A stretch of DNA of 43,012 bases from an uncultured Alphaproteobacteria bacterium (GCA_964631675.1 CAZVXJ010000002.1:1-43012); one strand, 5' to 3'. Positions 7,744 to 26,497 are shown, numbered from the stretch's first letter. Notes: generated by a model from the sequence alone, not told the origin. Program-made: numbers and translations.

Positions 7744-8154
7744 ATGTTTTTTTCGCGACCGACGACCTACGCGGTTCGAGCCCTGACCTATCTGGCATCA
7801 CATAGTGATGACGGCCCGATCTTGAGCGCCGCCATCGCCCGTGAAGAAAACATTCCAGGCTCTTACCTGATTAAGGTACTCGGTACACTCAGTTTTCACG
7901 GTTATGTGCGATCGGTGCGTGGACCAGGCGGCGGTTTCTCTCTGAACTGCAAACCTGAAGAGATCAGGCTGCTGGATATCTATTCCCTTTTCGATACTGT
8001 GTCACTCTCGCACCAGTGCCTGATGAGGCACGGAGACTGTAACGGCGACCCCGATTGTCCAGTTCATCGTCATTGGCAGCCTGCCCACGACAGCCTCATG
8101 AGCTTTCTGAGGGATCTCAGTGTGCAAGACTTACTCAAGCATGGTCAAGCGTAA
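7744..8154 (+). CDS. Rrf2-family [Fe-S] transcriptional regulator, first gene of the Moco/nar operon
   Basis: It is a paralogue of the 6928-7365 product, alignable over the whole length with the same GPGGGFSL. It has the same C-x6-C-x5-C triad (CLMRHGDCNGDPDCPVH). Confidence 0.8.
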   Translation: MFFSRPTTYAVRALTYLASHSDDGPILSAAIAREENIPGSYLIKVLGTLSFHGYVRSVRGPGGGFSLNCKPEEIRLLDIYSLFDTVSLSHQCLMRHGDCNGDPDCPVHRHWQPAHDSLMSFLRDLSVQDLLKHGQA

Positions 8155-9821: not shown

Positions 9822-10762
9822 TGATGCTGGACATTTCGAGAAAGACCTCCACTCTCCGCACGGCGATTGCCGAGGCGACCATTGCCATGAATCCCGAGAC
9901 GGTGCAAAGGGCTCTCAGCGGTGACACACCCAAAGGCTCACCGCTCGAGGTTGCAAAAGTTGCGGCCGTGCAGGCTGCCAAAAACACGTCGGCGATTATT
10001 CCCTATTGCCATCCGCTTCCCGTGGACTTTGTCGGTGTGGACTATACTCATACCGAAACGACGATCAAGATCATTGTCACAGTCAAGGCCATCTACAAGA
10101 CCGGAGTCGAGATGGAAGCGCTCACCGCGGCTTCGGTCGCGGCGCTCACCATTTACGACATGCTGAAAATGCTTGACGAGAGCATGGAAATTCAAGGCGT
10201 CAGACTTCGCTCCAAGACCGGCGGCAAATCGGATTTTGCGGAGCAGCTAAGAACTCCGCTGCGCGCAGGAGTGCTGGTTATGTCGGACTCGATCTCAAGC
10301 GGAAAGAAAACCGACAGGTCGGGGAACATCATTGTAAACCGGCTGCGCGCTGCCGAAGTTAATGTGCAGGAATATCTGGTGATTCCGGATGATCCGGCCA
10401 TGATTTCCCAAATAGTAAGGAACTGGTGCGATCAGCGGGAGTTTGATTTGGTCGTGACCACAGGGGGAACGGGCTTCAGTCCACGCGACCGGACTCCAGA
10501 GGCCATGCGTGATGTCATCGAGATCGAAGTTCCGGGTATTGCCGAAGCAATTCGCGCACATGGTCAGGCTCGCACACCATATTCGATGCTGTCCCGGAGT
10601 CTGGCGGGTATTCGCCGCGAGACCATCATCATCTGCCTTCCTGGATCGACCAGAGGGGTGGAAGAATCGCTCGATGCCATCATGCCCGCACTGAATCACT
10701 CGTTTCGCATGTTGTGGGCTGGAGGACACGCACGAAAAAGCCTGAGCGAGGACGAAGCATGA
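9821..10762 (+). CDS. moaC: bifunctional MoaC (cyclic pyranopterin monophosphate synthase) / MoaB-Mog-like MPT adenylyltransferase domain fusion
   Basis: The N-terminal half shows MoaC motifs (IIPYCHPLP, MEALTAASVAALTIYDMLK). The C-terminal half shows MoCF-biosynthesis motifs (VLVMSDS, TTGGTGFSPRDRTPEA). GGAGGA lies upstream, and the start overlaps the moaA stop (taATG). Confidence 0.85.
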   Translation: MMLDISRKTSTLRTAIAEATIAMNPETVQRALSGDTPKGSPLEVAKVAAVQAAKNTSAIIPYCHPLPVDFVGVDYTHTETTIKIIVTVKAIYKTGVEMEALTAASVAALTIYDMLKMLDESMEIQGVRLRSKTGGKSDFAEQLRTPLRAGVLVMSDSISSGKKTDRSGNIIVNRLRAAEVNVQEYLVIPDDPAMISQIVRNWCDQREFDLVVTTGGTGFSPRDRTPEAMRDVIEIEVPGIAEAIRAHGQARTPYSMLSRSLAGIRRETIIICLPGSTRGVEESLDAIMPALNHSFRMLWAGGHARKSLSEDEA

Positions 10763-11964
10763 TACCCTATGAAGAAGCACTTGAAATTGTGCTTGGTCAT
10801 TGCGCAAGGCTTGACACCGAATCTGTCCCGATTGAAGCGTCGCTTGGACGCGTGCTTGCCGAACCCCTGATCGCTACAGCAGACCTTCCGCGATTCGACT
10901 GCTCGGCCGTGGACGGTTACGCTCTGCATGTGCCGGAAGACGAATCCAGCCAAAGCGGGGCGGAGTATGAAGTAACCGGCATCATGAGGGCTGGGCACAA
11001 TTGTGACACTGCAGTCTCCAGTTCGACTGCCGTGCAGGTTCTCACAGGCGCGAGAATTCCAGCCGGTACAAACAGTGTGGTGATGAATGAGCAGATAACC
11101 CGCATCGAAGATCGCATACGCGTGTGGTCAGCACCTGCCGTGGGTGAAAACATCCGCTGGAAAGGTGAGGAGTATCGGCTGGGCGACCAAGCTCTGCTCG
11201 CAGGCAGCAAATTGAATCCGGCAGGAATTGGGCTGGCGGTCTCTTTGGGATATCAAAAACTCAGCGTGTATCAGCGGCCGCGAATGAGGTTGGTGACCAC
11301 CGGTGACGAAGTAGTCCCGCTTGGCACACCGCTGGAAGAAGGCCAGATCTACAATGCAAATCAATGTGCCTTGTCAGCGGCGCTGCTGGAAGCGGGATTC
11401 CGCCGCGTCCCGCATTTTCATGTTCAAGATGACCTGCATGCAACGCTGGAAGTACTGAACTCCACGCTCAGTCGCTGTGATGTGCTGCTCACAACCGGAG
11501 GCGTTTCAGTGGGCGAAACGGATTTCGTCAAAGTGGCGATGCAGGAGTTGGGATTCACGATTCACTTCACATCTGTCGCAATCAAACCGGGTAAGCCCAC
11601 GTGCTTTGGAAACCGGGGTCGGCAGCTCTGGTTTGGACTTCCCGGAAATCCTGTCGCCGCACTGCTATCGTTTCAGAAATTTGTGATTCCCGCACTGGCC
11701 TCTATGACGGGTGAAACTGAGGGGTCGTTGATTCGGACCAGTGCGCGACTCAAAGAATCCATACAAAAGAAATCTGGCAGAGCCGAGTTTGTGCGGGGGA
11801 ATGCATACCGCGAGAACGGTACACTCTCTGTAAAGCCCAGCCACTCCCGCGAATCCCACATGCTGGGCGGCCTCGCGCAGGCGAATGCGCTCATTCACTT
11901 TCCCGCACACAGCGAATGGTGTGCTGCCGGTGAGTTCGTCGAAATTGAGTTATTGCGTTCGTGA
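10759..11964 (+). CDS. moeA: molybdopterin molybdenumtransferase MoeA
   Basis: The ATG at 10759 overlaps the upstream stop (ATGA). MIPYEEALEIV.. is a typical MoeA N-terminus. Other motifs are SAVDGYAL, TTGGVSVGETDF and GLPGNPVAAL. Confidence 0.85.
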   Translation: MIPYEEALEIVLGHCARLDTESVPIEASLGRVLAEPLIATADLPRFDCSAVDGYALHVPEDESSQSGAEYEVTGIMRAGHNCDTAVSSSTAVQVLTGARIPAGTNSVVMNEQITRIEDRIRVWSAPAVGENIRWKGEEYRLGDQALLAGSKLNPAGIGLAVSLGYQKLSVYQRPRMRLVTTGDEVVPLGTPLEEGQIYNANQCALSAALLEAGFRRVPHFHVQDDLHATLEVLNSTLSRCDVLLTTGGVSVGETDFVKVAMQELGFTIHFTSVAIKPGKPTCFGNRGRQLWFGLPGNPVAALLSFQKFVIPALASMTGETEGSLIRTSARLKESIQKKSGRAEFVRGNAYRENGTLSVKPSHSRESHMLGGLAQANALIHFPAHSEWCAAGEFVEIELLRS

Positions 11965-11980
11965 GTAACGGAGGCGAAGC

Positions 11981-12469
11981 ATGAACCACAACGGAACGAT
12001 CGTGGCCATTTCCATCAGTAAGAAGCGCGGGATTCCGAAGACGAATGTCCCGGCGATCAATCTCATAGAGGATTGGGGTATGGAAAATGACATCCATGCC
12101 GGAATGTGGCACCGCCAAATTAGTCTGCTTGCGTTCGAGAGCGTTTGCAAGATGCGTGAAAAGGGAGTAAACGTCCGTCCCGGCGCATTTGCCGAGAATA
12201 TCACGACTGAGTTTATCGACATTCCCAACCTCCACATAGGCGACCGTGTTGTCCTCGGGAGCGCAGAACTGGAGATTACTCAGATCGGGAAGGAGTGTCA
12301 TCAGAAGTGTGCTATCTTCTATCGTGCCGGAGATTGCGTGATGCCGCGTGAGGGTATCTTTGCCGTTGTTAAGCGCGGGGGCGAGATTCGAGTCGGCGAC
12401 ATGGTCACGGTAAGACCAGCTGAGCGGTCCGTGTGCCAGATCAGTCCATCGGAGAAGGCAGTTTCATGA
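11981..12469 (+). CDS. MOSC domain-containing protein
   Basis: This is a 162-aa beta-barrel-type sequence with HRQISLL, ENITT and the Cys-rich KECHQKCAIFYRAGDCVMPREGIFA motif. That motif is typical of small MOSC proteins found next to moa genes. Confidence 0.7.
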   Translation: MNHNGTIVAISISKKRGIPKTNVPAINLIEDWGMENDIHAGMWHRQISLLAFESVCKMREKGVNVRPGAFAENITTEFIDIPNLHIGDRVVLGSAELEITQIGKECHQKCAIFYRAGDCVMPREGIFAVVKRGGEIRVGDMVTVRPAERSVCQISPSEKAVS

Positions 12470-13230
12470 GTTGTCCGTTGATTGCTCATACAGACTTCTT
12501 TTTGGCCATTCTTGTGTTTGCCATAGCGGCACTGTACAGCTCGGTGGGTCACGGTGGCGCCTCGGGCTATTTGGCGGTGCTTTCGCTCTGGGGATTCAGT
12601 GCCAGTGAAATGTCGGCGAGTGCTCTGGCATTGAACATTGTGGTTGCAGGTATTGCCTGGTGGTCATACTCTCGTTCGGGACATTTTTCCTGGCTGGGCA
12701 CCTGGCCGTTCATTTTGTTGTCCGTTCCGGCTGCAGCTTTGGGCGGTATGCTCGATGTGCCGGAGTCCTGGTACAAAGCACTGCTTTCGTTCGCATTGAT
12801 CGCCGCGGCCGTCCGTATGACCCTGCCGCGGTGTTATCAGAAGAACGAGGGAGAAACTCGTTTCGTTCACAACGGCATTAAAGTCCTTTCCGGTGGAATT
12901 ATCGGACTTCTGAGCGGCATCGTCGGTGTGGGCGGCGGCATATTTCTCAGTCCGATAATGCTGTTGCTGCGATGGGCTGACATTAAGACAGTCTCCGCCA
13001 CTGCAGCGTGCTTTGTAGTCGTCAACTCCGTGGCAGGACTTCTCGGGCGCGGATCCTCAGGCATAGAATTCTTGCGTACACTCGGACTCGTGCCGGTGTT
13101 TGCGGTGGCCGGCGGCATGTTAGGCTCCACTTTCGGATCCGCTAGATCATCCCGTCCTGCTTTGCAGCGGGTACTCGCTGTCGTCTTGGTTATCGCCGCT
13201 GCTAAGATGGCGTCTTCATTGTTCACTTGA
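12466..13230 (+). CDS. TauE/SafE (TSUP) family anion-transport membrane protein
   Basis: The ATG at 12466 overlaps the MOSC stop (ATGA). There are ~8 hydrophobic helices in two halves, each with a Gly-rich motif (GHGGASGYL; VGGGIFLSP). Confidence 0.7.
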   Translation: MSCPLIAHTDFFLAILVFAIAALYSSVGHGGASGYLAVLSLWGFSASEMSASALALNIVVAGIAWWSYSRSGHFSWLGTWPFILLSVPAAALGGMLDVPESWYKALLSFALIAAAVRMTLPRCYQKNEGETRFVHNGIKVLSGGIIGLLSGIVGVGGGIFLSPIMLLLRWADIKTVSATAACFVVVNSVAGLLGRGSSGIEFLRTLGLVPVFAVAGGMLGSTFGSARSSRPALQRVLAVVLVIAAAKMASSLFT

Positions 13231-13242
13231 TGAGAACATAAA

Positions 13243-14091
13243 ATGAAAGCATCCGCAAGATCCTACCATCTTCGTTTGATCGCTCTTCGCTTCGGGTTGA
13301 TATTGCTGACGGCCGCGATGCTGCCTCACTCGGGACTTGCAGAGGCGACCGATTCGAGTGCGCAGCAATCTGAAACGAGTGTGTCAGCTGCGGCGTCCGA
13401 CACTTCTGCAGTAGATGATATCGCGAACAAATTTGTGCTAAAGTGTTCGGGCTGCCATACAGTCGGAGGAGGAAAGCTCTCCGGTCCCGATCTGCTTCCG
13501 ACAAGAGTGTGGCCAAAGCCTGATTTGTTTGCCAAAATCAAGACCATGGAAAATCGTGTCGGTCCGCTTGCTGATCAAGATATTCACGCCTTTGGCGATT
13601 TTCTACGAGATGACCGGGTGGAAGCACGAATAAAGATCGCGCAGGAACTCGCGGGAAAGGCTGTCGCACTCAAACTTGCTCCGGCATCGCTCGATATTGG
13701 CAGCGAACTATTTGATGGGCGCCGCGCACTTTCGGCGGGGGGCATTGCATGTATCAGCTGTCATCAGCATGGTATCAGAGGTGGAACACTCGGCCCCGAC
13801 CTCACCGAGATTCATGCGCGCCTTCCGAAGGTCGCCATGGTGTCTGCCATCCAGCAGTCGCAATACCGCGTCATGTCAGGAACCTATCAGAAGCATCCGA
13901 TCACCGCGCAGGAGTCTGTACACCTTGCTGAGTTCCTATCAACCCCAGTCAGCGGATCACAATCGGCGTCTGAAAGTTCTGTCACCAAGCTCGGTTACAT
14001 TACAGCTTTCTTCGGTTTCGCACTCATTATTGCTGCATATCGAAAGCGCTCGCCGGGCTACAAAGCATCACTTCATCGGAGACACTCATGA
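13243..14091 (+). CDS. narC: membrane-anchored dihaem c-type cytochrome, NarC-like
   Basis: It has a signal peptide and two CxxCH motifs (CSGCH 13444-13458; CISCH 13750-13764). A C-terminal hydrophobic anchor ([17 protein letters not shown]) is followed by basic residues. The stop overlaps the narG start (ATGA). Its position matches Thermus narC. Confidence 0.65.
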
Positions 14092-17000
14092 GCTGGATTA
14101 CTGACTTGTTCGATCCCAAACAGCGCGAGTGGGAGGACTTTTACCGCAATCGCTGGTCATATGACAAGATTGTGCGGAGCACGCACGGTGTGAATTGCAC
14201 CGGCTCATGCAGTTGGAACATCTATGTCAAGAATGGGATTGTCACGTGGGAAATGCAGGCGCTGGATTATCCGATCGTGGACAAAGATATCCCCCCCTAT
14301 GAGCCTCGCGGCTGCCAGCGCGGCATCTCCTATTCCTGGTATCTGTACAGCCCAATCCGCGTTAAGTACCCCTACATGAGAGGTGCGCTGCTGGACCTGT
14401 GGCGCAATGCCAGGCGGAACTTTCCCGACGACCCGGTTGCAGCCTGGGAGTCCATCGTCTCAAACCCCGTATCACGCAGAAAGTATCAGCAGGCACGGGG
14501 CAAAGGCGGATTCCGGCGAGTCAAATGGGATGAAGTCGTGGAGTTAATCGCAGCGTCAAACATACACACCATTCAAAAGTACGGTCCGGATCGAATTGTT
14601 GGATTTTCTCCGATTCCTGCCATGTCCATGGTGAGCTATGCCTCCGGTGCGAGATTCCTGCAGCTCGTGGGTGGTGTAGCACTTTCGTTCTATGACTGGT
14701 ACTGCGATCTCCCGCCTGCGTCGCCGGAGATCTGGGGCGAACAGACGGATGTTGCCGAAAGTGCGGATTGGTTCAACTCAAATTTTGTGGCGGTTGTCGG
14801 CTCTAATGTCCTGATGACACGCACGCCAGACGCACATTTTCTCGTCGAGGCCCGGCATCGCGGAGCAAAGGTTGTGGTCTTCACGCCTGACTTCAGCATG
14901 ACTTCGAAGATAGGCGACGAGTGGATTCCTATTCATCAGGGACAGGACGGTGCCTTCTGGATGTCGGTCGGGCATGTGCTCTTGAAGGAGTTTCATGTCG
15001 ACCGCCAGGTGCCTTATTTCGTGGAATACCAGAAAAAGTTTACGGACGGACCGATGCTGGTGAAACTCGAAAAGAATGCGCGCGGCGTCTACTCGCCCGG
15101 CTCACTCTTGCGCACAAGCAAAGTGGAATCGACGAAATCGCTCGACAACGCAGAGTGGAAATTCTTCATGCTGGATGGAAGCTCGGGTGAACTCAGAGTT
15201 CCGACTGGTACTGTCGGCCATCGCTGGCAAGAGAAGAAGGGTCAGTGGAATCTCAAACTCGAAGACGAACGCACGGGAGTATCATTTGATCCTCTGCTTT
15301 CGCTGTTCAGTGAAGACGCCGAAAAGCTGAGCATAGAACTCGCCGACTTTTCCGAAGCCCGGACGGATGCGCGAGTTAACGTGGACGTCCCTGTACGCCG
15401 CATCATGACGACGAATGGGCCGGTCTTTGTGGCAACGGCATTTGATCTGATGATTGCCCGGTATGGGGTTTCACGCTGGGGAACAGCGGCGGCCTACGAC
15501 GATATTTCACTGCCCTATACGCCCGCATGGCAGGAAAAATTCACCGGAGTCTCCGGCGATGTCGTCGTGAAATTCGCACGCGAGTGGGCCAGGACTGCCG
15601 AAATGACGAACGGTAAGTGCAGCGTGATCATCGGCGCGGGTGTCAATCACTGGTACCACAATAATCTCATCTACCGGGCGGTCATTTCCAGTCTCATGAT
15701 GTGCGGCTGCGTGGGAGTGAATGGCGGCGGTCTCAATCACTATGTTGGTCAGGAGAAGCTAACGCCTCAGGCTTCGTGGGGTCCCATCGCATTTGGAACC
15801 GACTGGGCGGCTCCGCCCAGATTGCAGAACGCACCCTCGTTTCACTACGTAAACTCTGATCAGTGGCGCTATGACAAAGCATTCGATGAGCTTTGTCCGG
15901 TCAGCGACCGCAAGCACCGCATGGCCAGCGGTCACACCATTGACAAGCAAATTCTTGCAGTTCGGGCTGGCTGGCTGCCTTGTTACCCGCAATTTAACCA
16001 GTCATCACTGGAGCTTGCGGCAGAGGCCATTCGAAACGGTGCAAAGGATGACGCCGAAGTTGTGCAATACGTGGTGAACAAACTCAAGTCCCGCAAGTTG
16101 AAATTTGCGATGGAGGACCCGGACTCGCCCGAGAATTTTCCGCGCGTCTGGTATATCTGGCGGGGAAACGCGTTGCTGTCTTCCGCCAAGGGACATGAAT
16201 ATTTTCTCAAGCACTACCTCGGCACGCACAACAACTTGATTGCCGAAGAACAGGCGCGAGATCAGGTCCAGGAGGCCACTTGGCACGATAAACTTGAGTT
16301 GGGCAAGATGGATCTTGTGGTGGATCTGAATTACCGGATGGATTCGTCTGCCCTCTACTCGGATATTGTGCTTCCCGCGGCCACCTACTACGAGAAGAAT
16401 GATCTGAATTCGACGGACATGCACAGCTTTATTCATCCGCTGCAAGCCGCCGTTCCGCCCTGCTGGGAATCGAAAAGTGACTGGGACATATTCCGTACAA
16501 TTGCTGAAGCGACATCAAGACTGGCGGAGCGCTATCTGCCCGATACATTGAAGGATGTGGTTGCGTCACCGCTTGCTCATGATACCGCAGCCGAGATTGC
16601 TCAACCGAGCATCAAAGATTGGTCCAAAGGGGAATGCGAGCCGGTTCCGGGCAAAACGATGCCGAATCTGAAAGTCGTCTCGCGCGACTACAAGAATGTC
16701 TACAACAAGTTCATCAGTCTTGGGCCGAACTATCGAAATGGCTTGGGAATGCACGGCACGACGTACGAGGTGGCTGACCTGTACGACGCCTATCTTGAGT
16801 CCAATCCGACCGAGAAGTGGGACGGAGCCGAATACCCATCGCTGCGCGAAGATGTGCTCGTGTGTGAGGCCATCCTGCATTTTGCCGCGGAAACGAACGG
16901 CGAACTTGCTTACCGCGCATTTAAGAGTGAGTCGAAGAAGACCGGAATTGACCATACGCATCTGGCTCGCGATACGCGAGCGGTCCGGATCACGTTTGAC

Positions 17001-17708
17001 TCTATTGCCGTTCAGCCGAGGCGCACTTTGACGACGCCTTTCTGGACCGGAATCGTCAATGACAACCGCACCTATTCCGCCTATTGTCAGAATGTGGAAG
17101 AGCTCATTCCGTGGCGGACTCTCACCGGACGACAGCACTACTATCTTGATCACGAAGCCTACGTTGCGTTTGGAGAAAATCTCCCGACGTTCAAACCCAG
17201 ACCGGATGCCGCCACCATGGGCGACCTGAAAAAAACCGGACGCGATGGCAGCGCTCTGGTACTCAATTACCTGACACCGCACGGCAAGTGGTCTATACAC
17301 TCGACGTTTGGCGATACGCTGCGAATGCGAACGCTTAGCCGGGGCCACGATCCAATCTGGATTAACGATAAAGATGCGCTGATGATTGGAGTTGAAGACA
17401 ACGACTGGGTTGAAATCTACAATGACCACGGTGTTGTCTGCACTCACGCTAATGTAAGCGCGCGCATTCCCCGCGGGATGTGCTTCATTTATCACTCGCC
17501 CGAGCGCACGCTCGGAGTTCCGAAATCTCCGGAACGCGGCATGCGGCGGGCAGGCGGGCACAACAGCCTCACGAGGGTGCGGCTGAAACCACTGTTCATG
17601 ATTGGTGGCTACGGCCAGTTCACCTATGCCTTCAATTATTGGGGACCGCAGGGAGTGAATCGCGATACCTATGTGGCGGTGAAGAAACTCAACAAGGTCG
17701 TCTGGTAG
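14088..17708 (+). CDS. narG: respiratory nitrate reductase alpha subunit NarG (cytoplasm-facing, no Tat motif)
   Basis: The FS0 motif [11 protein letters not shown] begins at 14184. [22 protein letters not shown] contains the Asp Mo-ligand context of E. coli NarG. The product is 1,206 aa and the N-terminus has no RRxF twin-arginine motif. Confidence 0.9.
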
Positions 17709-17729: not shown

Positions 17730-19223
17730 ATGGATATTCGAGCGCAAGTCTCCATGGTGTTCCACCTGGACAAATGCATTGGCTGTCATACCTGCAGCAT
17801 CGCCTGCAAAAATGTGTGGACGGATCGCCCCGGCGCGGAATACATGTGGTGGAATAATGTCGAAACCAAGCCCGGCACCGGCTATCCCAGACGGTGGGAA
17901 GATCAGCAGCGCTACAAGGGCGGCTGGAAACTGGATGCCGACCGGCATCTCAAACTGCGCAGTCAGGGGCGTCTCACCGGGCTGTTGAAGCTGTTCTACA
18001 ACCCGAATCAGCCGGAGCTGGATGATTATTACGAGCCGTGGACGTACGAGTACGAAAATCTGTTCGATGCACCGGCTGGTGACGACCAACCCACGGCCAA
18101 ACCAATCTCGCAGATTACCGGTGAAGAGATGGAGGTCAAGGCCGGCCCGAATTGGGACGATGATCTCTCCGGCTCGCCCGTGCACGCGGCAAATGATGTC
18201 AATTACGACAATCTGACGGATGAGGAACGCGCACAGCTGTTTGAAATTGAGCGCGTTGCTTTCATGTATCTGCCGAGAATCTGCAATCACTGTGCAAATC
18301 CAAGTTGCGTCGCTTCATGTCCATCGGGTGCTCTCTATAAGCGCGGCGAGGATGGGATTGTCCTGATCAACCAGAATGTCTGCCGGGGCTGGCGCGCTTG
18401 CGTATCGGCGTGTCCCTACAAGAAGATATACTACAACTGGCAGACGGGGAAATCGGAAAAGTGCATCCTCTGCTATCCAAGACTCGAAACCGGTCAGGCT
18501 CCGGCCTGCTTTCACAGCTGTGTGGGACGCATTCGTTACTTAGGTGTGCTGCTCTATGACGCCGACCGAATAGAGCAGGCCATGAAAACTGCGGACGAAC
18601 TTCTGGTGGAGGCGCAGCGCGAAGTGATCTGCGATCCCCATGATGATACCGTGATCGCTTCTGCAAGAGCCAATGGGATCAGCGACGAGTTTATCACAGC
18701 CGCACAGAAATCCCCCGTGTACAAGTACGTCATGGAATGGAAGCTCGCTCTCCCGCTGCACATCGAGTATCGAACGATGCCGATGCTGTTTTACGTGCCG
18801 CCGCTCCTGCCGGTCATGGGCAAGGGCGGCGACCAACCCTACGATCACGCCGCAGACGAGTTGTTCTCCAGTATTGACAAGGCGCGGGTCTCGATTAAAT
18901 ACCTTGCCAGGCTGTTCAGTGCCGGAAACGAGCGAATTGTGGAATCCGTCCTGAAGAAACTCATCGCGGTGCGATACTACAGAAGATCGAAAGATGTGAA
19001 AGATGTTGACAGCGCACTGGTTCAGAAGACCATGCGCGAGGCCGGAGTCACACCCGAACAGGCCGAGGAAATCTACCGCCTGACTGCCGTTCCGACCGTT
19101 CATCAAAGGTATGTGCTGCCGCCGCTCCAACGCGAAGAGGCCGTCGCCGAGAGCTGTAATGTTGAGCAATGCAAGGGCACCTGTGGATTCGGTCCATCCA
19201 CCTTACCGGTGAGAGGAGCTTAG
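17730..19223 (+). CDS. narH: respiratory nitrate reductase beta subunit NarH
   Basis: There are four Fe-S groups: CIGCHTCSIACK, CNHCANPSCVASCP, CRGWRACVSACP (the Trp-containing 3Fe-4S group) and CILCYPR..CFHSCVGRIRY. Confidence 0.9.
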   Translation: MDIRAQVSMVFHLDKCIGCHTCSIACKNVWTDRPGAEYMWWNNVETKPGTGYPRRWEDQQRYKGGWKLDADRHLKLRSQGRLTGLLKLFYNPNQPELDDYYEPWTYEYENLFDAPAGDDQPTAKPISQITGEEMEVKAGPNWDDDLSGSPVHAANDVNYDNLTDEERAQLFEIERVAFMYLPRICNHCANPSCVASCPSGALYKRGEDGIVLINQNVCRGWRACVSACPYKKIYYNWQTGKSEKCILCYPRLETGQAPACFHSCVGRIRYLGVLLYDADRIEQAMKTADELLVEAQREVICDPHDDTVIASARANGISDEFITAAQKSPVYKYVMEWKLALPLHIEYRTMPMLFYVPPLLPVMGKGGDQPYDHAADELFSSIDKARVSIKYLARLFSAGNERIVESVLKKLIAVRYYRRSKDVKDVDSALVQKTMREAGVTPEQAEEIYRLTAVPTVHQRYVLPPLQREEAVAESCNVEQCKGTCGFGPSTLPVRGA

Positions 19224-19226
19224 TTC

Positions 19227-19763
19227 ATGCCAAAGCCACCCAACAGGGACATTTACGGAGTACTTGCCCGGTTGCTGACCTATCCCTCGGAAAACTACGT
19301 CAATCTTGTCAACAGCATTGCATTAGGATGTTCCACTTCAAGAGCAAGCGCCTCGATCGAGCGATTCGCACAAGCCTTTGACCAGAAGAGTCAGGGCGAG
19401 TGCGAGGAGCTCTATACGCAGACCTTTGACCTTTCGCCGCCGTGCACTCCCAACGTCAGTGCGCACCTGTTCGGTGAGGAGAGTTTCAAGCGGGCAGCGC
19501 TCATGGCGAAACTTCGTGAGCATTTTAATCAAGTCGGATTAGACGCTGGCAGCGAGTTGCCCGATCACATTGCAACCTTGCTCAAGTTCATGGAGTTCGG
19601 ACCTGAAGAAATGCGCATAGACATGGATCGTCATGTCATTCGGCCTGCATTGGAGAAAATGTGCGGTATTCTCGGTCGCATCAAGAACCCGTATGCGCAC
19701 TTACTTGAAGCGGCGATAATCATTTTGCGCACCGAATTCGGGAGGGAGATAGCCCATGCTTGA
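19227..19763 (+). CDS. narJ: nitrate reductase molybdenum cofactor assembly chaperone NarJ (TorD family)
   Basis: Motifs are ELYTQTFD, HLFGEE and ELPDHIATLLKFMEF. It sits between narH and narI. Confidence 0.8.
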   Translation: MPKPPNRDIYGVLARLLTYPSENYVNLVNSIALGCSTSRASASIERFAQAFDQKSQGECEELYTQTFDLSPPCTPNVSAHLFGEESFKRAALMAKLREHFNQVGLDAGSELPDHIATLLKFMEFGPEEMRIDMDRHVIRPALEKMCGILGRIKNPYAHLLEAAIIILRTEFGREIAHA

Positions 19764-21072
19764 AATGTTTTTGCTCGTCGGATTGCCTTACCTCGCAATC
19801 ACTGTATGCATTGTCGGCACCGTGTACCGCTTCCGTTCCGATCGCTATCATGTCTCGTCTCTCTCATCGCAGTTTCTCGAGGGGCGCAAACTGCTATGGG
19901 GATCCGCCCCCTGGCATCTGGGTCTGGTCATTCTGTTTACCGGACATCTCGCCGCCTTCATTATGCCTGACTTCTGGCATGACCTGATGACTATCCCTGC
20001 ATTGCTATTTACGGTGGAAGTCATCGGAATTGCAGCGGCTCTGCTTTGCCTGCTTGGGCTGCTGGTTCTACTCTACCGCCGAATCACGACGGACAAACTT
20101 CAGCACGTTACCAAGACTGCCGACATCGTGGTGCTTGTTGTGCTGCTCGTTCAGATTGCACTTGGTCTTGCGACAGCGGTCGGTTACCGCTGGGGAGCGA
20201 TCTGGTCAACCGGCACGCTCTCACCCTATATCTGGAGCATCATCACGTTCCGCCCCGACGTTTCGCTGGTGCGCGATTTGCCGCTGCCCATTCAACTCCA
20301 TTTGACGGGAGCCTGGATTGTGCTGCTTGTCATTCCGTTCTCCCGTCTCATCCACATGTTCTCCGTACCCCTGCAGTACCTGATTCGCTCGCCGCAAATC
20401 GTTATCTGGAACAACTCGCGCAGAACCCGGCATGCCACATCCGCAGCCGTTCAGCAGGAGTCCCGTCGACATTTCGTGAAAGGGGCGGTCGGGCTGGCCG
20501 CAGCCGGAACGCTGCTCAGCGTCGGGGTGCTGGATAAAATGTTTCGCTTCTTTCAAATGCCCGGTCTTCACAAGGACGAGGAAGCCAAACTGCTTGAATC
20601 GCGGCTGAAGAGGCTGCATCTCACCGCCGAAGAAAAGCAGCTTGAACTTGAACGGTTGAGACAGGACGCGATTTTCGTGGCCAAGCTGGAGGATCTCAGC
20701 CCCAATCAAGGAAAGTACTTCATTGATTATGCCATGCGTCCGGCCATTGCTCTTGCAGGTGACGATGGCTGGCCGATGCTGATTTCCGCGAAGTGCACAC
20801 ACCTCGGCTGCACGGTCGGCAATCAAGTGGACAGCAACGGCAAGATACTTTGTCCCTGTCATGTGTCTTACTTTGATGTCAAAACTGGCATGCCCAATCC
20901 GGGTGCACCGGCGAAAGCGCCTCTCGGACGAATCGGTTACATCATTCAAGATGAATCGGGTGCGGAGATTGCCAGCGAATCTCCCCGTGGAACGCGCACC
21001 GGAAGACTGGACCTCGATTTCGCTTCTTCATACTCGGTTTATATCGTCAAGAGTCTCACTCCTGAGGCATGA
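19756..21072 (+). CDS. narI: NarI (nitrate reductase gamma, dihaem cytochrome b) fused to a TM-anchored Rieske [2Fe-2S] domain
   Basis: Residues 1-~222 form five TM helices with His pairs H54-x9-H64 and H182-x17-H200, the same spacing as in E. coli NarI. Then come SRRHFVKG plus a sixth helix, a charged linker, and Rieske boxes CTHLGC (20794-20811) and CPCH (20851-20862). No stop separates the two parts. Confidence 0.85.
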   Translation: MLEMFLLVGLPYLAITVCIVGTVYRFRSDRYHVSSLSSQFLEGRKLLWGSAPWHLGLVILFTGHLAAFIMPDFWHDLMTIPALLFTVEVIGIAAALLCLLGLLVLLYRRITTDKLQHVTKTADIVVLVVLLVQIALGLATAVGYRWGAIWSTGTLSPYIWSIITFRPDVSLVRDLPLPIQLHLTGAWIVLLVIPFSRLIHMFSVPLQYLIRSPQIVIWNNSRRTRHATSAAVQQESRRHFVKGAVGLAAAGTLLSVGVLDKMFRFFQMPGLHKDEEAKLLESRLKRLHLTAEEKQLELERLRQDAIFVAKLEDLSPNQGKYFIDYAMRPAIALAGDDGWPMLISAKCTHLGCTVGNQVDSNGKILCPCHVSYFDVKTGMPNPGAPAKAPLGRIGYIIQDESGAEIASESPRGTRTGRLDLDFASSYSVYIVKSLTPEA

Positions 21073-22175
21073 TGAAAAACTCCACTATCTACAAGCTCAC
21101 AGAATTCCTGGGTACTCGACTGCCGATCGAAACCCTGGATATTCGGCACATCATGACCGAAAAGGAAGTGCCGCTCCATCGTATGAGCTGGGCCTACTAT
21201 CTCGGCGGACTTGCATTTTTCTTCTTCCTGATTCAGGTACTGACCGGATTGATGCTGCTATTCTACTATGAACCGACGGTCAGCGAGGCCCACGAATCCG
21301 TGGAGTACATTACCAACTTTGTGATCATGGGCGGGCTGATTCGCAACATGCATGCGTGGTCCGCCACGTTCATGATTTTCTGTCTTATCGCGCACTTGTT
21401 GACGACGTTTTCCATGAAAGCTTTTTCCAAGCCGCGCGAACTCACCTGGATATCGGGAGTCCTGCTGCTGCTGGTTACGTTTGGATTCGGTTTTACCGGC
21501 TATCTTCTGCCCTGGAACCAGATCGCGGTGAACGCAACCAAGGTCGGCCTGCAATCCATTGAGCAAGTCGGACAGTATCTCCCTGCTGCGTTGTCGAATC
21601 TTGCGGAAGAGATCCGGGTGACAATACAAGGAGAGGCATCCATCGGTCAGGCAACGCTCAGCCGGTTCTTTGCCCTGCATGTTGTGGTGCTGCCTATGGC
21701 CATCATGGGAGTACTCGGCCTGCATTTACTTTCGGTTCAATTGCACGGAATGAGTCCGGGGGTTGAAAAACCGACTAAGAAGGCAGAGCGCTTCTTTCCA
21801 TTTTTTGTCATAAAAGATTTTTCCGAATGGGGAATTGCATTTCTGCTTTTGTTTGTCATCGCGCTTTGCCTCCCATTTGACTCGCTCATGCCATTTCCAC
21901 TTCTCGAACCATTCAATCCTCTGGGTTCAACTCCGGATGGCATCAAGCCCGAGTGGTATTTCTACTTCGTTTACTATCCGATGGAGTTGCTGCCGTTCTG
22001 GATCATCATTGTGGTGATGACCTTGGCAACCATAGGGTTGTTCCTCACTCCATGGATATTCAAGGGTACGAGCCACAAGGTGCTGCGCATTATCGCGAGT
22101 ACGGTGGCGCTTTACTTAACCGTTATGACACTGTTCGGCGAAGCAATCTATCACGCTATCAAGGGAGTCGGGTGA
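21069..22175 (+). CDS. cytochrome b of a Rieske/cyt b complex (b6 plus subunit-IV-like parts in one 368-aa polypeptide)
   Basis: Helix B has H-x13-H (HAWSATFMIFCLIAH). Helix D has H-x14-H (HVVVLPMAIMGVLGLH), the b6-type spacing. GYLLPWNQ is present, and the Qo-site PEWY motif (KPEWYFYF) lies at 21948-21959. The start overlaps the narI-Rieske stop (ATGA). Confidence 0.85.
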   Translation: MMKNSTIYKLTEFLGTRLPIETLDIRHIMTEKEVPLHRMSWAYYLGGLAFFFFLIQVLTGLMLLFYYEPTVSEAHESVEYITNFVIMGGLIRNMHAWSATFMIFCLIAHLLTTFSMKAFSKPRELTWISGVLLLLVTFGFGFTGYLLPWNQIAVNATKVGLQSIEQVGQYLPAALSNLAEEIRVTIQGEASIGQATLSRFFALHVVVLPMAIMGVLGLHLLSVQLHGMSPGVEKPTKKAERFFPFFVIKDFSEWGIAFLLLFVIALCLPFDSLMPFPLLEPFNPLGSTPDGIKPEWYFYFVYYPMELLPFWIIIVVMTLATIGLFLTPWIFKGTSHKVLRIIASTVALYLTVMTLFGEAIYHAIKGVG

Positions 22176-22180
22176 TTGCT

Positions 22181-22765
22181 ATGAAGTGTTCCATTTTGAT
22201 TGCGACGGCTCTGACAATGGTGCCGCATCTGCTGTACGCTTACCCTGAGTTTCAACGGTACTCACAGGAGCGATCTGGGCGGCCGGTGAACTGCGCCATG
22301 TGCCATATCAGTTCCGATGGTCCGGAGGGTTCGGGTCATGGTCAGATAGGAAGTCTGAATGGTGAGGAATTGAACCGCTTGAATCAGGCGCGTGGCGCCT
22401 TCGCACCGGGGCTCGCCGTGCGAAGTCCGATTCTGAATGAATTTGGGAACAATATCGTGCGGGTGATGGGAAAGCAGAAATTCGTTGAGTTGCGGTCCCG
22501 ACCCGCAGAGCTTCCGGCAAACTATGGGTTCAAGAGTGATCTCGATGGTGACGGTATTCCCGATGCTGAGGAATATCTGGATGGTACACAGCCCCTAAAT
22601 CGTTCACACGGGGCTCCCCTGAAGATATTCATGCACAATCTCATCGCCTACCGCTTTCACATCCTTATGATCGCATTGGCCACTGCCTCAGGGTTATATG
22701 GTCTTGCTCATCTGCTGAGAGGCTTTTCAGTCCGCATGGATCAATCCAAGGACGCACAAGCATGA
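22181..22765 (+). CDS. membrane-anchored monohaem c-type cytochrome (candidate cyt c1/f analogue of the module)
   Basis: The ATG at 22181 lies inside the longer track ORF 21953-22765. It has a signal-like N-terminus MKCSILIATALTMV and a single CAMCH (22292-22306). An acidic DLDGDGIPDAEEYLDG loop and a C-terminal TM helix (FHILMIALATASGLYGLAHLL) follow. The stop overlaps the next start (ATGA). Confidence 0.65.
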   Translation: MKCSILIATALTMVPHLLYAYPEFQRYSQERSGRPVNCAMCHISSDGPEGSGHGQIGSLNGEELNRLNQARGAFAPGLAVRSPILNEFGNNIVRVMGKQKFVELRSRPAELPANYGFKSDLDGDGIPDAEEYLDGTQPLNRSHGAPLKIFMHNLIAYRFHILMIALATASGLYGLAHLLRGFSVRMDQSKDAQA

Positions 22766-24279
22766 GCGAACAGGCGAAGGCCACGCGGGTCCTGGTGATG
22801 AACACGCTCGCATTCACCGTATGCTTTGCGTGCTGGATGATGAACGGCGTATTGATCACCCACCTGGTGGACAACGATGTCTTCCAGTGGGACAAAGCAC
22901 AGATGGGCTGGTTGATCGGAATTCCGGTCTTGAGTGGATCGCTTATGAGATTGCCGGTTGGAGTACTCACCGACAAGTATGGCGGGCGAAGCGTGTACAC
23001 CATCCTTATGCTGCTATCGGCCATTCCGATGTACATGATGAGCATGGCTGACACATATTTCGAGTTTTTTTTCGCCAGTCTTGGATTCGGATTGTCCGGT
23101 GCGGCATTCGCGGTGGGAATTGCATATACCTCCGTTTGGTTTCCGAAGCATCGTCAGGGTACAGCTCTGGGTATTTTTGGCGTCGGAAACGCAGGTTCAG
23201 CACTGACGAGCATGGTTGCCCCCATCGTGCTCGTCTCGCTTACGGATCACGGTTCAAATCTTGAGGGCTGGAGAACTCTGCCAAAGTATTATGCCGCCGG
23301 ACTCGTGGTGATGGCTATACTATTTTTCCTCTTGACCTATCCCAAACGTGCGGATCATACGGAAGGAATGACATTAAGACAGCGGCTTGAACCGCTGAAA
23401 TATGTTCGCGTCTGGCGCTTCGGACTTTATTACTTTCTGGTATTCGGTGCCTTCGTCGCGTTGGCACAGTGGCTGATTCCTTACTATGTGAATGTGTATA
23501 CCATGTCGGTCGCTGCGGCCGGTCTGATGGCGTCCATTTTCAGCTTGCCGTCGGGACTGATTAGAGCGCTTGGCGGATGGCTATCCGACCGCTTTGGTGC
23601 GCGCCGAATCATGTATTGGGTACTCGGTTCATGTCTGCTCGGCTGTGCATTGCTATGTGTGCCACGAATGGATATCGAGTCGCCCGGACCCGGCGTTACC
23701 GCCCAGAGAGCAGGAACGGTGATGGCGGTTTCCGATCGTGAGATATTGGTTGATCAGCGGACCTACTCCATTAGGCCGCAGCCTGAATCGTGGCGAGCAA
23801 TGCAGGACTCATCATTTCTGGTTTTTCCCTCGGGAGAGTTCTGGCACAGGCCGGTGGTCAAGGAAGGCGATAAAGTAGTCAAGAAGCAACTGCTGGCGCG
23901 GGGAGTTACGCATCTGTACTTTCAGGCAAACGTTTGGATTTTTACGGCCGTGCTTTTTCTGATTGGGATCATGATGGGGATCGGAAAAGCCGCCGTCTAT
24001 AAACATATTCCGGATTATTACCCGGATCAAGTTGGAGTCGTTGGCGGAATTGTCGGTGTGGTCGGCGGGCTTGGAGGGTTCATCTGTCCAATCATCTTCG
24101 GTTACATGCTGAAGTGGACAGGAATCTGGACGACGCTGTGGATATTCCTGGCAGTGTTGTCATTCATTTGCTTACTCTGGATGCACGTTGTAGTCCAGCG
24201 GATGATGCATCGGCAAACACCTCTCCTTATGCGCCACATTGAGGAGCAGACTCTGCCGCACCAACCCGCCAGAACCTAA
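22762..24279 (+). CDS. narK: NNP-family MFS nitrate/nitrite transporter (NarK1-type) with a ~90-aa loop insertion
   Basis: It has 12 predicted TM helices, LTDKYGGRS, and Gly-rich NNP signatures (GIFGVGNAGSA; GGIVGVVGGLGGF). The insertion is at residues ~301-389, between TM9 and TM10. Confidence 0.8.
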   Translation: MSEQAKATRVLVMNTLAFTVCFACWMMNGVLITHLVDNDVFQWDKAQMGWLIGIPVLSGSLMRLPVGVLTDKYGGRSVYTILMLLSAIPMYMMSMADTYFEFFFASLGFGLSGAAFAVGIAYTSVWFPKHRQGTALGIFGVGNAGSALTSMVAPIVLVSLTDHGSNLEGWRTLPKYYAAGLVVMAILFFLLTYPKRADHTEGMTLRQRLEPLKYVRVWRFGLYYFLVFGAFVALAQWLIPYYVNVYTMSVAAAGLMASIFSLPSGLIRALGGWLSDRFGARRIMYWVLGSCLLGCALLCVPRMDIESPGPGVTAQRAGTVMAVSDREILVDQRTYSIRPQPESWRAMQDSSFLVFPSGEFWHRPVVKEGDKVVKKQLLARGVTHLYFQANVWIFTAVLFLIGIMMGIGKAAVYKHIPDYYPDQVGVVGGIVGVVGGLGGFICPIIFGYMLKWTGIWTTLWIFLAVLSFICLLWMHVVVQRMMHRQTPLLMRHIEEQTLPHQPART

Positions 24280-24289
24280 AGGAGCGCAC

Positions 24290-25855
24290 ATGGCACGCAC
24301 ACTCGATAACTGGGACGTTGAGAATTCCAATTTCTGGGAGACTCACGGAAAGAAAGTCGCGTTCCGCAACCTTTGGATATCGGTTCCGGCCCTGCTCTGC
24401 GGATTTGCGGTCTGGATGTACTGGTCCATTGTAACGACCCGAATGCAGGATCTGGGCATCATGTTTGACCCCGATCCGGGTACGAACAAATCTCTGCTCT
24501 ATACTCTGATGTCAATTTCCGGTTTGACCGGCGCGACACTCCGAATTCCCAATTCATTTTTTGTCGCTCTGAGTGGCGGGCGAACAGCCGTGGCCGTTAC
24601 GACAGCCCTGCTCATACTGCCCGCGCTGGGATTGGGAATTGCTCTGCAGAATCCTGCAACTCCGTATTCCACTTATGTTGTGTTGGCCGCACTCTCGGGA
24701 ATCGGTGGCGGCGCGTTCGCCTCATCCATGTCCAATATCTCGTTCTTCTTTCCCAAACGCATGCAGGGCATGGCGCTCGGTCTGAATGCCGGTCTTGGCA
24801 ATCTGGGTGTCAGCGTCATGCAGGTTATGCTGCCGTTTGCAATGACGTTCGGATTGTTTGGTGCACTTGGTGGAAACCCCAAACCACTGCCCAAGGCGGT
24901 AGCAGGTATGGCAGCTGGCACAAACATCTGGATTCAGAATTGCGGCCTTGTATGGGTTCCGATCCTTGCGGCGCTTGCGGTGCTGGCATGGATGCTGATG
25001 AGCAATCTCGCGATTCACCGGATTGGCCCGGCACTTGTTGCCATCGTGAAGATGCTGTATCTGATTCTGCTCGGTTTTGGAGCGTCTGCCGTAGGATTAT
25101 ACATGCTGCTGCCGCTCAAGATCAACATGTGGCTGGTCCTGCCGGTAACCATCATTCTCACGCTGCTGCTGATTCGGTACATGTCGCCCGGCATGATCCG
25201 AAAAAACCTGGCCGGACAGTTTGTCATTTTTCAGAAGAAGCACAACTGGGTGATGACATGGCTGTATGTCATGACGTTCGGGTCGTTCATCGGGTACTCT
25301 GCGGCGTTTCCCAAATTAATTCAGGATGTATTCGGATACCTGCCGGACGGCTCACCGAATCCCAATGCGCCCAGTCCGTTTGCATACGCGTGGCTCGGCC
25401 CATTGGTGGGTTCACTGGTGCGACCTCTTGGAGGCTGGTTGTCCGACAAGTTTGGCGGCGCGCGGGTCACACAATGGGACACTGTGCTTATGGTGCTTGC
25501 GGCAATTGGTGCGGCGGTGGCCGTCAGGGCAGCAAATTCTTCTGCTACTCCGGAGACTTACTTTTTTCCATTTCTCGTACTCATGCTGCTGCTGTTTGTG
25601 ACGTCCGGCATCGGAAATGGATCCACGTTTCGAATGATTCCGGTCATCTTCGAACCAAAACTTGCAGGTCCGGTACTCGGATGGACTTCGGCCATAGCTG
25701 CATACGGTTCCTTCATCATTCCGAAAGTGTTCGGTGCACAAATCCAATCAGGACACCCGGAATATGCGTTCTTCGGTTTCGCCGTCTATTACGTTACCTG
25801 CCTCGGTGTCAACTGGTGGTTCTATGCGAGGTCCGGGGCAGAGATTCGCTGTTAG
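24290..25855 (+). CDS. narK: NNP-family MFS nitrate/nitrite transporter (E. coli NarK-like, NarK2-type)
   Basis: The ATG at 24290 has AAAGGAG upstream. The N-terminus NWDVENSNFWETHGKKVAFRNLWISVPALLCGFAVWMYWS is colinear with E. coli NarK. Signatures are GLNAGLGNLG and TSGIGNGSTFRMIP. Confidence 0.85.
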   Translation: MARTLDNWDVENSNFWETHGKKVAFRNLWISVPALLCGFAVWMYWSIVTTRMQDLGIMFDPDPGTNKSLLYTLMSISGLTGATLRIPNSFFVALSGGRTAVAVTTALLILPALGLGIALQNPATPYSTYVVLAALSGIGGGAFASSMSNISFFFPKRMQGMALGLNAGLGNLGVSVMQVMLPFAMTFGLFGALGGNPKPLPKAVAGMAAGTNIWIQNCGLVWVPILAALAVLAWMLMSNLAIHRIGPALVAIVKMLYLILLGFGASAVGLYMLLPLKINMWLVLPVTIILTLLLIRYMSPGMIRKNLAGQFVIFQKKHNWVMTWLYVMTFGSFIGYSAAFPKLIQDVFGYLPDGSPNPNAPSPFAYAWLGPLVGSLVRPLGGWLSDKFGGARVTQWDTVLMVLAAIGAAVAVRAANSSATPETYFFPFLVLMLLLFVTSGIGNGSTFRMIPVIFEPKLAGPVLGWTSAIAAYGSFIIPKVFGAQIQSGHPEYAFFGFAVYYVTCLGVNWWFYARSGAEIRC

Positions 25856-26378: not shown

Positions 26379-26497
26379 CTCTGATTCTTAAGGAATGCTG
26401 GCATGGACGCCGTTTGGTGTTTCGAGGAGCGTTAGAGCCCCATATGAGTCAGGCAAAGGCTTAGTGGCCGATTATCAGATTTGAACGGGAGAATCCA

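Follow-up and report, generated by a model that had tools for sequence, protein, structure and literature searches.

A stretch of DNA of 43,012 nucleotides (nt) from an uncultured Alphaproteobacteria bacterium (GCA_964631675.1 CAZVXJ010000002.1:1-43012), referred to here in its entirety as the window, carries a gene cluster for a respiratory nitrate reductase (Nar) in which narI, the gene for the gamma subunit, continues in frame into the coding sequence of a Rieske iron-sulfur domain. The product can be read as one polypeptide with two roles, serving as the NarI anchor to a NarGH that faces the cytoplasm and contributing the Rieske subunit to a complex of the cytochrome bc type, and a Q-cycle that supplies nitrate reduction with electrons offers the best explanation of this arrangement; the probability of the combined reading is put at roughly 0.55. 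That the fusion is genuine and carries its Rieske domain on the outside of the membrane is nearly certain. A single polypeptide tethers the Nar and bc modules to each other 1:1; an obligate Nar-bc supercomplex is, as judged from the genes, very probable, and Q-cycle-coupled delivery of electrons to NarI stands at even odds.

Domains, topology and assembly of the fused polypeptide

The fusion gene and its parts are arranged as follows (aa, amino acids; TM, transmembrane).

19756..21072, plus strand: narI::Rieske fusion gene, ATG start, intact open reading frame (ORF), 438 aa
19756..20412, plus strand: NarI domain (aa 1-219), five TM helices, haem ligands H54, H64, H182 and H200
20461..20532, plus strand: internal twin-arginine (RR) motif S236-R-R-H-F-V-K-G and sixth TM helix (TM6, aa 241-259), the predicted Rieske membrane anchor
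20572..20661, plus strand: conserved amphipathic linker helix (aa 273-302), family consensus EEAxLLxxRLxRLxxTAEERxLELER
20668..21072 including the stop codon, plus strand: Rieske [2Fe-2S] head (aa 305-438), with C347-T-H349-L-G-C352 and C366-P-C368-H369-V-S371-Y-F373

Both halves of the protein are recognized by profile searches. The Pfam family Nitrate_red_gam matches residues 4-218 with an E value of 1.4e-62 and 211.6 bits against a cut-off of 22.9, covering positions 2-216 of the 217 in the profile, and the NCBIfam narI equivalog TIGR00351 scores 135.1 bits against the fusion (cut-off 105.55). The Pfam Rieske family is matched by residues 307-381 at 30.2 bits (cut-off 20.3), so that the two families by which the initial annotation had proposed to check the fusion are both detected above cut-off. 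In alignment, H54, H64, H182 and H200 pair with H56, H66, H187 and H205 of the Escherichia coli NarI (PDB 1Q16), in which the bis-His haem sites are formed by H56/H205 and H66/H187. An AlphaFold2 (AF2) model built from 111 homologues has a mean predicted local distance difference test (pLDDT) score of 85.6, and its NarI bundle superposes on E. coli NarI (1Q16 chain C) with a Foldseek TM-score of 0.80 at about 31% identity. The profiles, the ligand alignment and the modelled fold thus agree with the original description of a complete NarI that has five helices and both bis-His haem pairs.

The Rieske half holds both cluster boxes, as had been claimed, with CTHLGC at residues 347-352 (nt 20794-20811) and CPCH at 366-369 (nt 20851-20862); these coordinates, and that of SRRHFVKG at 20461, had been given exactly. 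Across the 111-sequence alignment the four haem ligands, all ligands of the Rieske cluster and its disulfide cysteines are invariant, and the RR pair is kept in 109 sequences (family consensus ESRRxFLKGA). Two further residues of the cluster region, S371 and F373 at positions H+2 and H+4, are also invariant. The former we take to be the serine that raises the potential of the bc1 Rieske cluster, and the latter presumably replaces the tyrosine at H+4; a retained Ser together with Phe for Tyr suggests a cluster of intermediate to high potential, typical of partners of a quinol-oxidizing (Qo) site. The solved structures nearest to this part of the protein are Rieske proteins of the bc/b6f type, the best by sequence being 9rk3_A (E 3.9e-9). 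None of the NCBIfam subfamily equivalogs for PetC (29.8 bits against a cut-off of 250), the proteobacterial Rieske protein (30.3 against 97.4) or the actinobacterial QcrA (36.6 against 275) is reached, and on these scores the fusion Rieske is a lineage separate from all three.

A hydropathy scan of the fusion finds six TM segments, and loops rich in Lys and Arg occur at residues 24-54, 108-123 and 194-240. The placement of these loops puts the Rieske part outside, which agrees with an N-out/C-in NarI followed by an N-in/C-out sixth helix, and the topology expected in the initial annotation is in keeping with both the hydropathy and the distribution of positive charge. In the AF2 model an unbroken helix (residues 221-267) holds the RR motif and TM6 and is interrupted at the conserved P269; a second, confidently modelled helix (273-302, pLDDT about 90) then leads to the Rieske head (305-438). 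The linker, at first estimated at about 60 aa, is shorter in the model, where it has about 45 residues with one 30-residue helix.

Polytopic membrane proteins that depend on both the general secretory (Sec) and twin-arginine translocation (Tat) pathways carry an S/T-R-R-x-F-L-K motif, and are released from Sec to Tat by a weakly hydrophobic last transmembrane domain (TMD) and the positive charges that trail it (PMC5449189). Of these helices TM6 has the lowest hydrophobicity (mean Kyte-Doolittle value 1.55 versus 1.96-2.57 for the other five), and about three Lys or Arg residues come just after it. With its RR motif, the hydropathy of TM6 and these trailing charges, the junction obeys the published rules; the Pfam TAT_signal profile matches residues 236-253 weakly (16.4 bits, under the cut-off of 22.7). 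By this route Sec would insert the first five helices, TM6 with its weak hydrophobicity and the internal SRRxFLK motif before it would pass the folded 2Fe-2S domain to Tat, and this hand-over would leave the Rieske head in the periplasm. The TM6 region is accordingly best described as a predicted uncleaved anchor of the Tat-signal type, N-in/C-out, with the Rieske head on the periplasmic (P) side. A comparable layout is known from the actinobacterial polytopic QcrA and other dual Sec/Tat proteins (Tooke et al. 2017, PMC5449189), in which the Rieske domain likewise follows several TM helices and an internal RR motif precedes a weakly hydrophobic last helix. However, the extra helices of QcrA bind no cofactor, whereas the N-terminal part of the fusion is a complete dihaem cytochrome of a different enzyme. 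The genome screen in that study admitted only proteins with an even count of TMDs ahead of the RR motif and would therefore have missed a protein built as a five-helix NarI, an RR motif and TM6.

Distribution of the fusion and a second family

A homologue search covering 5.8 billion proteins returned 569 homologues of the fusion, and the details given here are drawn from the best 120 of them. All are 433-479 aa long, carry both Pfam domains and share 50-76% identity with the fusion; their source names are forms of 'nitrate reductase subunit gamma', apart from one 'hypothetical protein', and the best named homologues belong to Calditrichota. In a species census, one genome per GTDB species was scanned with two motifs from the Rieske half, and at least 516 species-representative genomes were found to encode a relative. 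Locus comparisons were made on the best 80 of the relatives' genomes, with 10-kb flanks. The search for the same fusion in other genomes, which the initial annotation had suggested, was therefore amply rewarded, and the gene neighbourhood is shared in the loci compared. All 80 lie in metagenome-assembled genomes (MAGs) from a dozen or more phyla, which include Hydrogenedentota, Verrucomicrobiota, Obscuribacterales/Melainabacteria, Planctomycetota, Sumerlaeota and Acidobacteriota as well as Bacteroidota, Myxococcota, Omnitrophota, Gemmatimonadota, Eisenbacteria, FCPU426 and others.

This breadth bears on the possibility of an assembly or annotation artefact, in which a missed stop codon or a frameshift would have merged an ordinary narI with a separate Rieske gene. 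One 90%-identity cluster of the second family described below (P0362) also holds Rieske-only proteins, so that split or differently called versions do exist. Nevertheless, hundreds of independent assemblies, at 45-76% identity, keep the same continuous frame and a conserved junction, and the junction itself (the RR motif and TM6) is under selection; the artefact is effectively refuted and retains next to no weight.

The NarI half alone was used for a HMMER scan of 1.84 billion cluster representatives, which gave 1398 hits, and the near-full-length hits among the best 150 were classified. Eight 50%-identity clusters in this set are NarI-Rieske fusions. Three of these clusters, P0146, P0150 and P0188, have different Rieske sequences and are without the long linker helix, yet each has an RR motif, and in a neighbour-joining tree of low resolution their NarI domains branch off from the window family, beside unfused NarI. 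A second large family, searched with P0150 as seed, has 874 hits at E <=1e-20, and its named members are Acidobacteriota, mainly Bryobacterales. In its operon, narG, narH, narJ and narI::Rieske are preceded by the gene for a small, C-terminally anchored NarC-like cytochrome c with one haem and followed by one for a fusion of cytochrome b with cytochrome c; the neck of the Rieske part is short, and the cytochrome c domain is placed C-terminally on the cytochrome b. At the level of sequence, the same set of modules is put together in two different ways, in at least two separate NarI-Rieske families. Gene fusion thereby makes the association of Nar with bc covalent; it is conserved across at least 516 species genomes and occurs in two families that are placed apart from each other.

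Several observations on related proteins may be added. The Rieske-only proteins of cluster P0362 are 162-171 aa long, come from Bryobacterales MAGs and are annotated 'ubiquinol-cytochrome c reductase iron-sulfur subunit'; they may be true split genes, frameshifts or other gene calls. P0122 (237 aa) is a seemingly unfused NarI, 55% identical to the NarI half of the window, that falls inside the fusion clade of the tree and may result from a secondary split or from truncation by the gene caller. Near the second-family loci L082 (3859-12677), L083 and L084, in Acidobacteriota/Bryobacterales MAGs, genes for NnrS, RIC and hemerythrin are found. NarI also occurs in other fusions, with a cytochrome c on its N-terminus, with a C-terminal pentahaem cytochrome c, or with a NarK-like transporter of the major facilitator superfamily (P0135, P0148, P0252, P0266, P0190, P0158). 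The two kinds that involve cytochrome c again join NarI to periplasmic c haems, and were counted in favour of an electron path of the type proposed below.

Partner cytochromes, the proposed electron path and its rivals

The genes that accompany the fusion are the following.

13243..14091, plus strand: NarC-like dihaem cytochrome c (Pfam Cytochrome_CBB3, Cytochrom_C), 4-nt overlap with the start of narG
14088..17708, plus strand: NarG, catalytic subunit with molybdenum bis-molybdopterin guanine dinucleotide (Mo-bisMGD); NCBIfam narG equivalog at 1536.5 bits, cut-off 1084
17730..19223, plus strand: NarH, iron-sulfur subunit (Pfam Fer4_11, Nitr_red_bet_C)
19227..19763, plus strand: NarJ chaperone (Pfam Nitrate_red_del, E 1.2e-11), 8-nt overlap with the start of the fusion gene
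21069..22175, plus strand: cytochrome b, a b6-like N-terminal part fused to a subunit-IV-like part (Pfam Cytochrome_B, Cytochrom_B_N_2, Cytochrom_B_C)
22181..22765, plus strand: new monohaem cytochrome c, 194 aa, with signal peptide, C38-A-M-C41-H42 and C-terminal TM anchor

Adjacent genes overlap, start on stop, by 4-8 nt at four junctions, among them the two that bound the fusion gene, and the start of the cytochrome b gene shares the sequence ATGA with the fusion's stop codon. When the window proteins were used in tblastn comparisons, the order NarC-like cytochrome c, narG, narH, narJ, narI::Rieske, cytochrome b and monohaem cytochrome c was kept in 80 of 80 loci as far as the contigs extend; the 1:1 linkage to the downstream cytochrome b that had been proposed at the outset fits both the single polypeptide and this adjacency in related loci. 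The positions of the narK and moa genes vary among the same loci, with narK usually adjacent. The N-terminus of NarG ([23 protein letters not shown]...HGVNCTGSC) has no RR/Tat signal in the window, nor has that of NarG in 57 related loci, and the lack of such a signal, together with the adjacent NarK, places nitrate reduction in the cytoplasm.

The NarC-like cytochrome c has a signal peptide, CxxCH motifs at C68/C71/H72 and C170/C173/H174, and a C-terminal TM anchor. Its haem-binding Cys and His residues, as well as Met102 and Met211, which provide a Met ligand for each haem, are invariant in 52 orthologues. It shares the architecture of the NarC of Thermus thermophilus, which it matches in BLASTP over the second haem domain (E 3e-11); this homology was seen only by direct pairwise comparison, as a tblastn search of the plasmid collection gave no match. 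The cytochrome b has seven TM helices and matches cytochrome b6 in the PDB (E 2.3e-47); the Cys that binds haem ci in b6f is missing. Across 73 orthologues the H-x13-H and H-x14-H haem ligands, the PEWY motif at Qo and the QLHGMSPG motif on the N side are all conserved. The ligands and PEWY argue for an intact Qo site, and QLHGMSPG points to a working quinone-reducing (Qi) site. With the NarC-like protein considered in its orthologues, the cofactor ligands of NarI, Rieske, cytochrome b and NarC-like cytochrome c are thus conserved throughout.

The monohaem cytochrome c is of a different character. Its family comprises 496 homologues, whose source names read 'hypothetical' apart from one TSP3-repeat protein, and both the CxxCH motif and a DxDGDGxxD motif that resembles a calcium site are invariant. 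Searches gave no significant Pfam match (TSP3_bac was found below threshold) and none among NCBIfam or PDB sequences. Its AF2 model is confident (pLDDT 93.2, predicted TM-score (pTM) 0.78), and since a Foldseek comparison of the model with the PDB found no match, the predicted fold is unlike that of cytochrome c1, cytochrome f or any other PDB chain. It recalls cytochrome c1 by layout only, with an N-terminal CxxCH, a C-terminal anchor and a gene that follows that for cytochrome b. No partner of the cytochrome c1 or f type was identified in the cluster, as this protein matches neither by sequence nor by fold.

These components suggest the following electron path. Three proteins would join the fusion in a fixed 1:1 complex, namely cytochrome b, which is co-translated with it, and both cytochromes c of the cluster, the new monohaem and the NarC-like dihaem protein. 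The complex would probably take the form NarGHI-bc-bc-NarGHI by analogy with bc dimers and the actinobacterial III2IV2 supercomplex. Quinol would be oxidized at the Qo site of cytochrome b. The first electron would pass from the Rieske cluster to the monohaem cytochrome c, the haems of NarC, the distal haem (bD) and then the proximal haem (bP) of NarI, and from there through NarH and NarG to nitrate in the cytoplasm, while the second would follow haems bL and bH to the Qi site in a Q-cycle. About 4 H+ (charges) would be translocated per 2e-, against 2 for a NarGHI that oxidizes quinol directly. In its fullest form the proposal holds that all electrons enter through Qo and a private wire of c haems (the new-fold monohaem cytochrome c and NarC) into the haems of NarI, that NarI does not itself oxidize quinol, that cytoplasmic nitrate reduction is driven in this manner in a large uncultured share of soil, groundwater and wastewater bacteria, and that their energy yield is doubled to about 4 H+/2e-; this is considered to fall slightly short of an even chance.

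Any reading of NarI as a recipient of electrons has to take account of its quinol site. In E. coli the quinol-oxidizing Q_D site involves Lys86 and His66. Lys86 sits in a three-residue insertion that neither the fusion nor Thermus NarI has and that most of the other unfused NarI sampled lack as well, and the clade of Thermus-type NarI, in which many unfused proteins are included, has a conserved Glu (E88 in the fusion) in its place. Two types of NarI can accordingly be recognized in the region of helices II and III (window aa 74-91, nt 19975-20028), an E. coli type with an insertion that carries Lys86 (or His or Tyr) and a Thermus type with Glu. As the Thermus type is without the insertion, the quinol-site residue studied in E. 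coli is not general. Loss of Lys86 was considered as a sign that the quinol site of NarI had been lost, and this was rejected because the residue is missing clade-wide and its absence is in no way specific to the fusion.

A number of points weigh against the scheme in which the Q-cycle feeds nitrate reduction. The NarI domain of the fusion bears no mark of quinol-site loss, and direct oxidation of quinol by this domain is possible on the basis of its sequence. The pTM of the AF2 model of the fusion is 0.49, which leaves the mutual arrangement of its domains undefined. Homologues of the monohaem cytochrome c have no conserved Met or His that could serve as sixth haem ligand, and the fold of this protein has no counterpart in the PDB. 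The step from cytochrome c to NarI is inferred rather than shown; haems c with His/Met ligation are usually more positive than haem bD of E. coli NarI, so that this step may be uphill. On the side of physiology, the compared genomes are without exception from uncultured organisms. Finally, the NarC of Thermus has been proposed to carry electrons in the opposite direction, outward from Nar to the nitrite and nitric oxide reductases Nir and Nor (PMC7694296).

The last proposal also favours what is the main rival to the Q-cycle-fed Nar-bc model, in which NarI oxidizes quinol directly for nitrate reduction and the Rieske protein, cytochrome b and cytochrome c form an ordinary bc complex. Electrons from this complex would go, perhaps by way of NarC, to periplasmic reductases of nitrite, NO and N2O or to oxidases, and the fusion would merely secure co-assembly, stoichiometry and co-regulation. 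Such a branch point sits well with a NarI domain that retains every feature common to unfused NarI of the Thermus type, the conserved Glu included, and with the textbook view that bacterial NarGHI takes its electrons straight from quinol, bypasses the bc complex and yields 2 H+/2e- (PMC3509893). The gene neighbourhood tells against it, since the 10-kb flanks of the best 80 loci show no recurrent nir (nirS, nirK), nor or nos family; the commonest flanking families are instead Rrf2/NsrR-like regulators (22 loci), RIC/ScdA (12) and Crp/Fnr (5), along with Mo-cofactor genes. It is moreover hard to see why two separately placed families should fuse the modules covalently if no electrons flow between them, and a dedicated bc complex would be redundant if NarC already led electrons out of NarI, as has been suggested for Thermus. 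This alternative is regarded as unlikely, though it deserves to be taken seriously.

A much less probable reading is that the complex operates in the opposite direction and is a nitrite oxidoreductase (NXR), with electrons passing from NarG through NarH and NarI to NarC, and from there in part to an oxidase and in part backwards through the bc complex to quinone, driven by the proton-motive force. The NXR of Nitrobacter is indeed a relative of NarGHI that faces the cytoplasm and has a NarC homologue in its gene cluster (PMC7694296), and electron transfer between haems of the NarI type and a c-type cytochrome is assumed for that enzyme. The NarG of the window nevertheless scores as a narG equivalog, and regulators of the NO-stress and Fnr/Crp types form a context typical of anaerobic nitrate respiration. 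The hosts (Hydrogenedentota, Verrucomicrobiota, Obscuribacterales, Acidobacteriota and others) also fit poorly; we know of no nitrite oxidizer among the lineages that carry the fusion.

Surrounding genes, known systems and implications

The nar cluster is flanked by the following genes.

22762..24279, plus strand: NarK-family nitrate/nitrite transporter (Pfam MFS_1; NCBIfam TIGR00886, E 4e-56, below cut-off)
24287..25855, plus strand: second nitrate/nitrite transporter, NarK/NarU family (NCBIfam NarU, E 4e-91, and TIGR00886, E 3e-78, both below cut-off); start codon uncertain, with the ORF as listed running from 24239
8120..13230, plus strand: molybdenum (Mo) cofactor genes mobA, moaA, moaC-moaB/mog and moeA, a gene with a MOSC domain and a TauE-family permease (Pfam)
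6094-6876, minus strand: RIC/ScdA (Pfam ScdA_N and Hemerythrin)
6928-7365, minus strand, and 7744-8154, plus strand: two putative, divergent Rrf2/NsrR-like regulators, each with a three-Cys motif, assigned by reading ORF translations

The block of Mo-cofactor and TauE genes lies directly upstream of the nar cluster, and the RIC/ScdA and Rrf2-like genes, connected with nitrosative stress and regulation, come immediately before it. Scans of the window for promoters and terminators performed no better than on shuffled sequence, and an Rfam scan of the window gave no match. Further from the cluster, positions 908-3916 (plus strand) encode a 1002-aa protein with beta-propeller and immunoglobulin-like domains and a C-terminal sorting domain of the type IX secretion system, and 4073-5266 (minus strand) a Pyr_redox_2 flavoprotein with a weak match to sulfide dehydrogenases. 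The sorting domain of the former suggests a host from the FCB group, in keeping with the Calditrichota affiliation of the best named homologues. Past 26 kb few long ORFs are apparent, and poor assembly was considered as a cause and ruled out; the region only looks non-coding, as it is occupied by a stop-free frame of at least 5516 codons (26465-43012, plus strand) that is open at the end of the window. The giant protein encoded there has right-handed beta-helix, LamG/ConA-like and CARDB domains.

Among known systems the NarCGHJI(KT) of T. thermophilus is alike in gene order, with narC, narG, narH, narJ and narI followed by two NarK-type transporters, and in its cytoplasmic NarG. Its NarI is the closest unfused NarI to the fusion in the plasmid collection (39.7% identity) and has the same helix III of the Glu type, and its NarC (262 aa) resembles the NarC-like cytochrome c of the window in having two CxxCH motifs and a C-terminal TM helix and in its place upstream of narG. 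Thermus NarC binds NarI strongly in two-hybrid assays and is required for maturation of Nar, for its attachment to the membrane and for active enzyme (PMC7694296). Unlike the fusion, however, Thermus NarI stops after its fifth helix, and the Thermus operon is without a Rieske protein, cytochrome b or monohaem cytochrome c. E. coli NarGHI (PDB 1Q16) shares the fold and the four haem His residues of NarI and has homologous NarG, NarH and NarJ, but lacks a sixth helix, a Rieske domain and associated cytochromes c or b, and has the Lys86 quinol-site insertion that the fusion does not.

Two systems come closer in function. Nar1 of Streptomyces coelicolor depends in vivo on the activity of the bcc-aa3 supercomplex, with which it co-purifies (Falke et al. 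2021, PMC7931247). The authors of that study proposed that electrons pass from a dihaem cytochrome c to haem bD of NarI, with 4 H+/2e-, and considered this thermodynamically feasible because the span from menaquinol to nitrate is about 505 mV (PMC7931247). This spore enzyme is thus also a cytoplasmic NarGHI that depends on a bc-type complex, with the same proposed Q-cycle path. Its subunits are separately encoded, though, and the association, which may be transient, involves the aa3 oxidase and is not predictable from the genes, whereas in the window the association of Nar with bc is written into the structure of the genes. The haloarchaeal pNar clusters (PMC3509893) hold genes for a Rieske protein (NarB) and a cytochrome b (NarC) among the nar genes, and Q-cycle coupling has been proposed for them as well. 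There, however, NarG has a Tat signal, is exported and faces outward, electrons reach NarH on the outside, and neither a NarI nor a fusion is present. The window differs, as an RR signal is missing from its NarG, just as it is from that of the 57 loci, and as it encodes a NarI with both haem sites and has NarK genes next to the cluster.

Functional precedents for a bc-dependent Nar therefore exist in S. coelicolor Nar1 and in the haloarchaeal clusters, and the new part is a respiratory supercomplex that is fixed by gene fusion. The initial annotation knew of no characterized nitrate reductase built in this way, and this continues to hold: no paper describing a NarI-Rieske fusion was found in literature searches, whose coverage left out subscription journals, and no solved structure with such a chain was found in the PDB.

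The fusion has consequences beyond respiration. It adds a new class, with five TM helices, an RR motif and TM6, to the dual Sec/Tat membrane proteins, and with it an unannotated family of haem c proteins with a predicted new fold is brought to light. Hundreds of database entries named 'nitrate reductase subunit gamma' also conceal a subunit of a bc complex.

The textbook account of Nar has so far been challenged solely by indirect biochemistry on Streptomyces spores (PMC7931247). The NarI-Rieske fusion, found in two families and hundreds of species together with cytochrome b and dedicated cytochromes c, argues strongly, at the genomic level, that Nar-bc supercomplexes exist and are common. What was a tentative hypothesis from biochemistry thereby becomes a widespread architecture that is encoded in sequence and can be tested directly. 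If a Q-cycle does feed nitrate reduction, NarI gains a second mode of operation, as a transmembrane wire from cytochrome c to NarH rather than a quinol dehydrogenase, and the family would provide a stable, stoichiometric complex that could settle the Streptomyces question. The arrangement suggests that the bacteria that carry it obtain about twice the usual energy from nitrate, in which case the energy yields assumed in models of the nitrogen cycle would be too low for these lineages.

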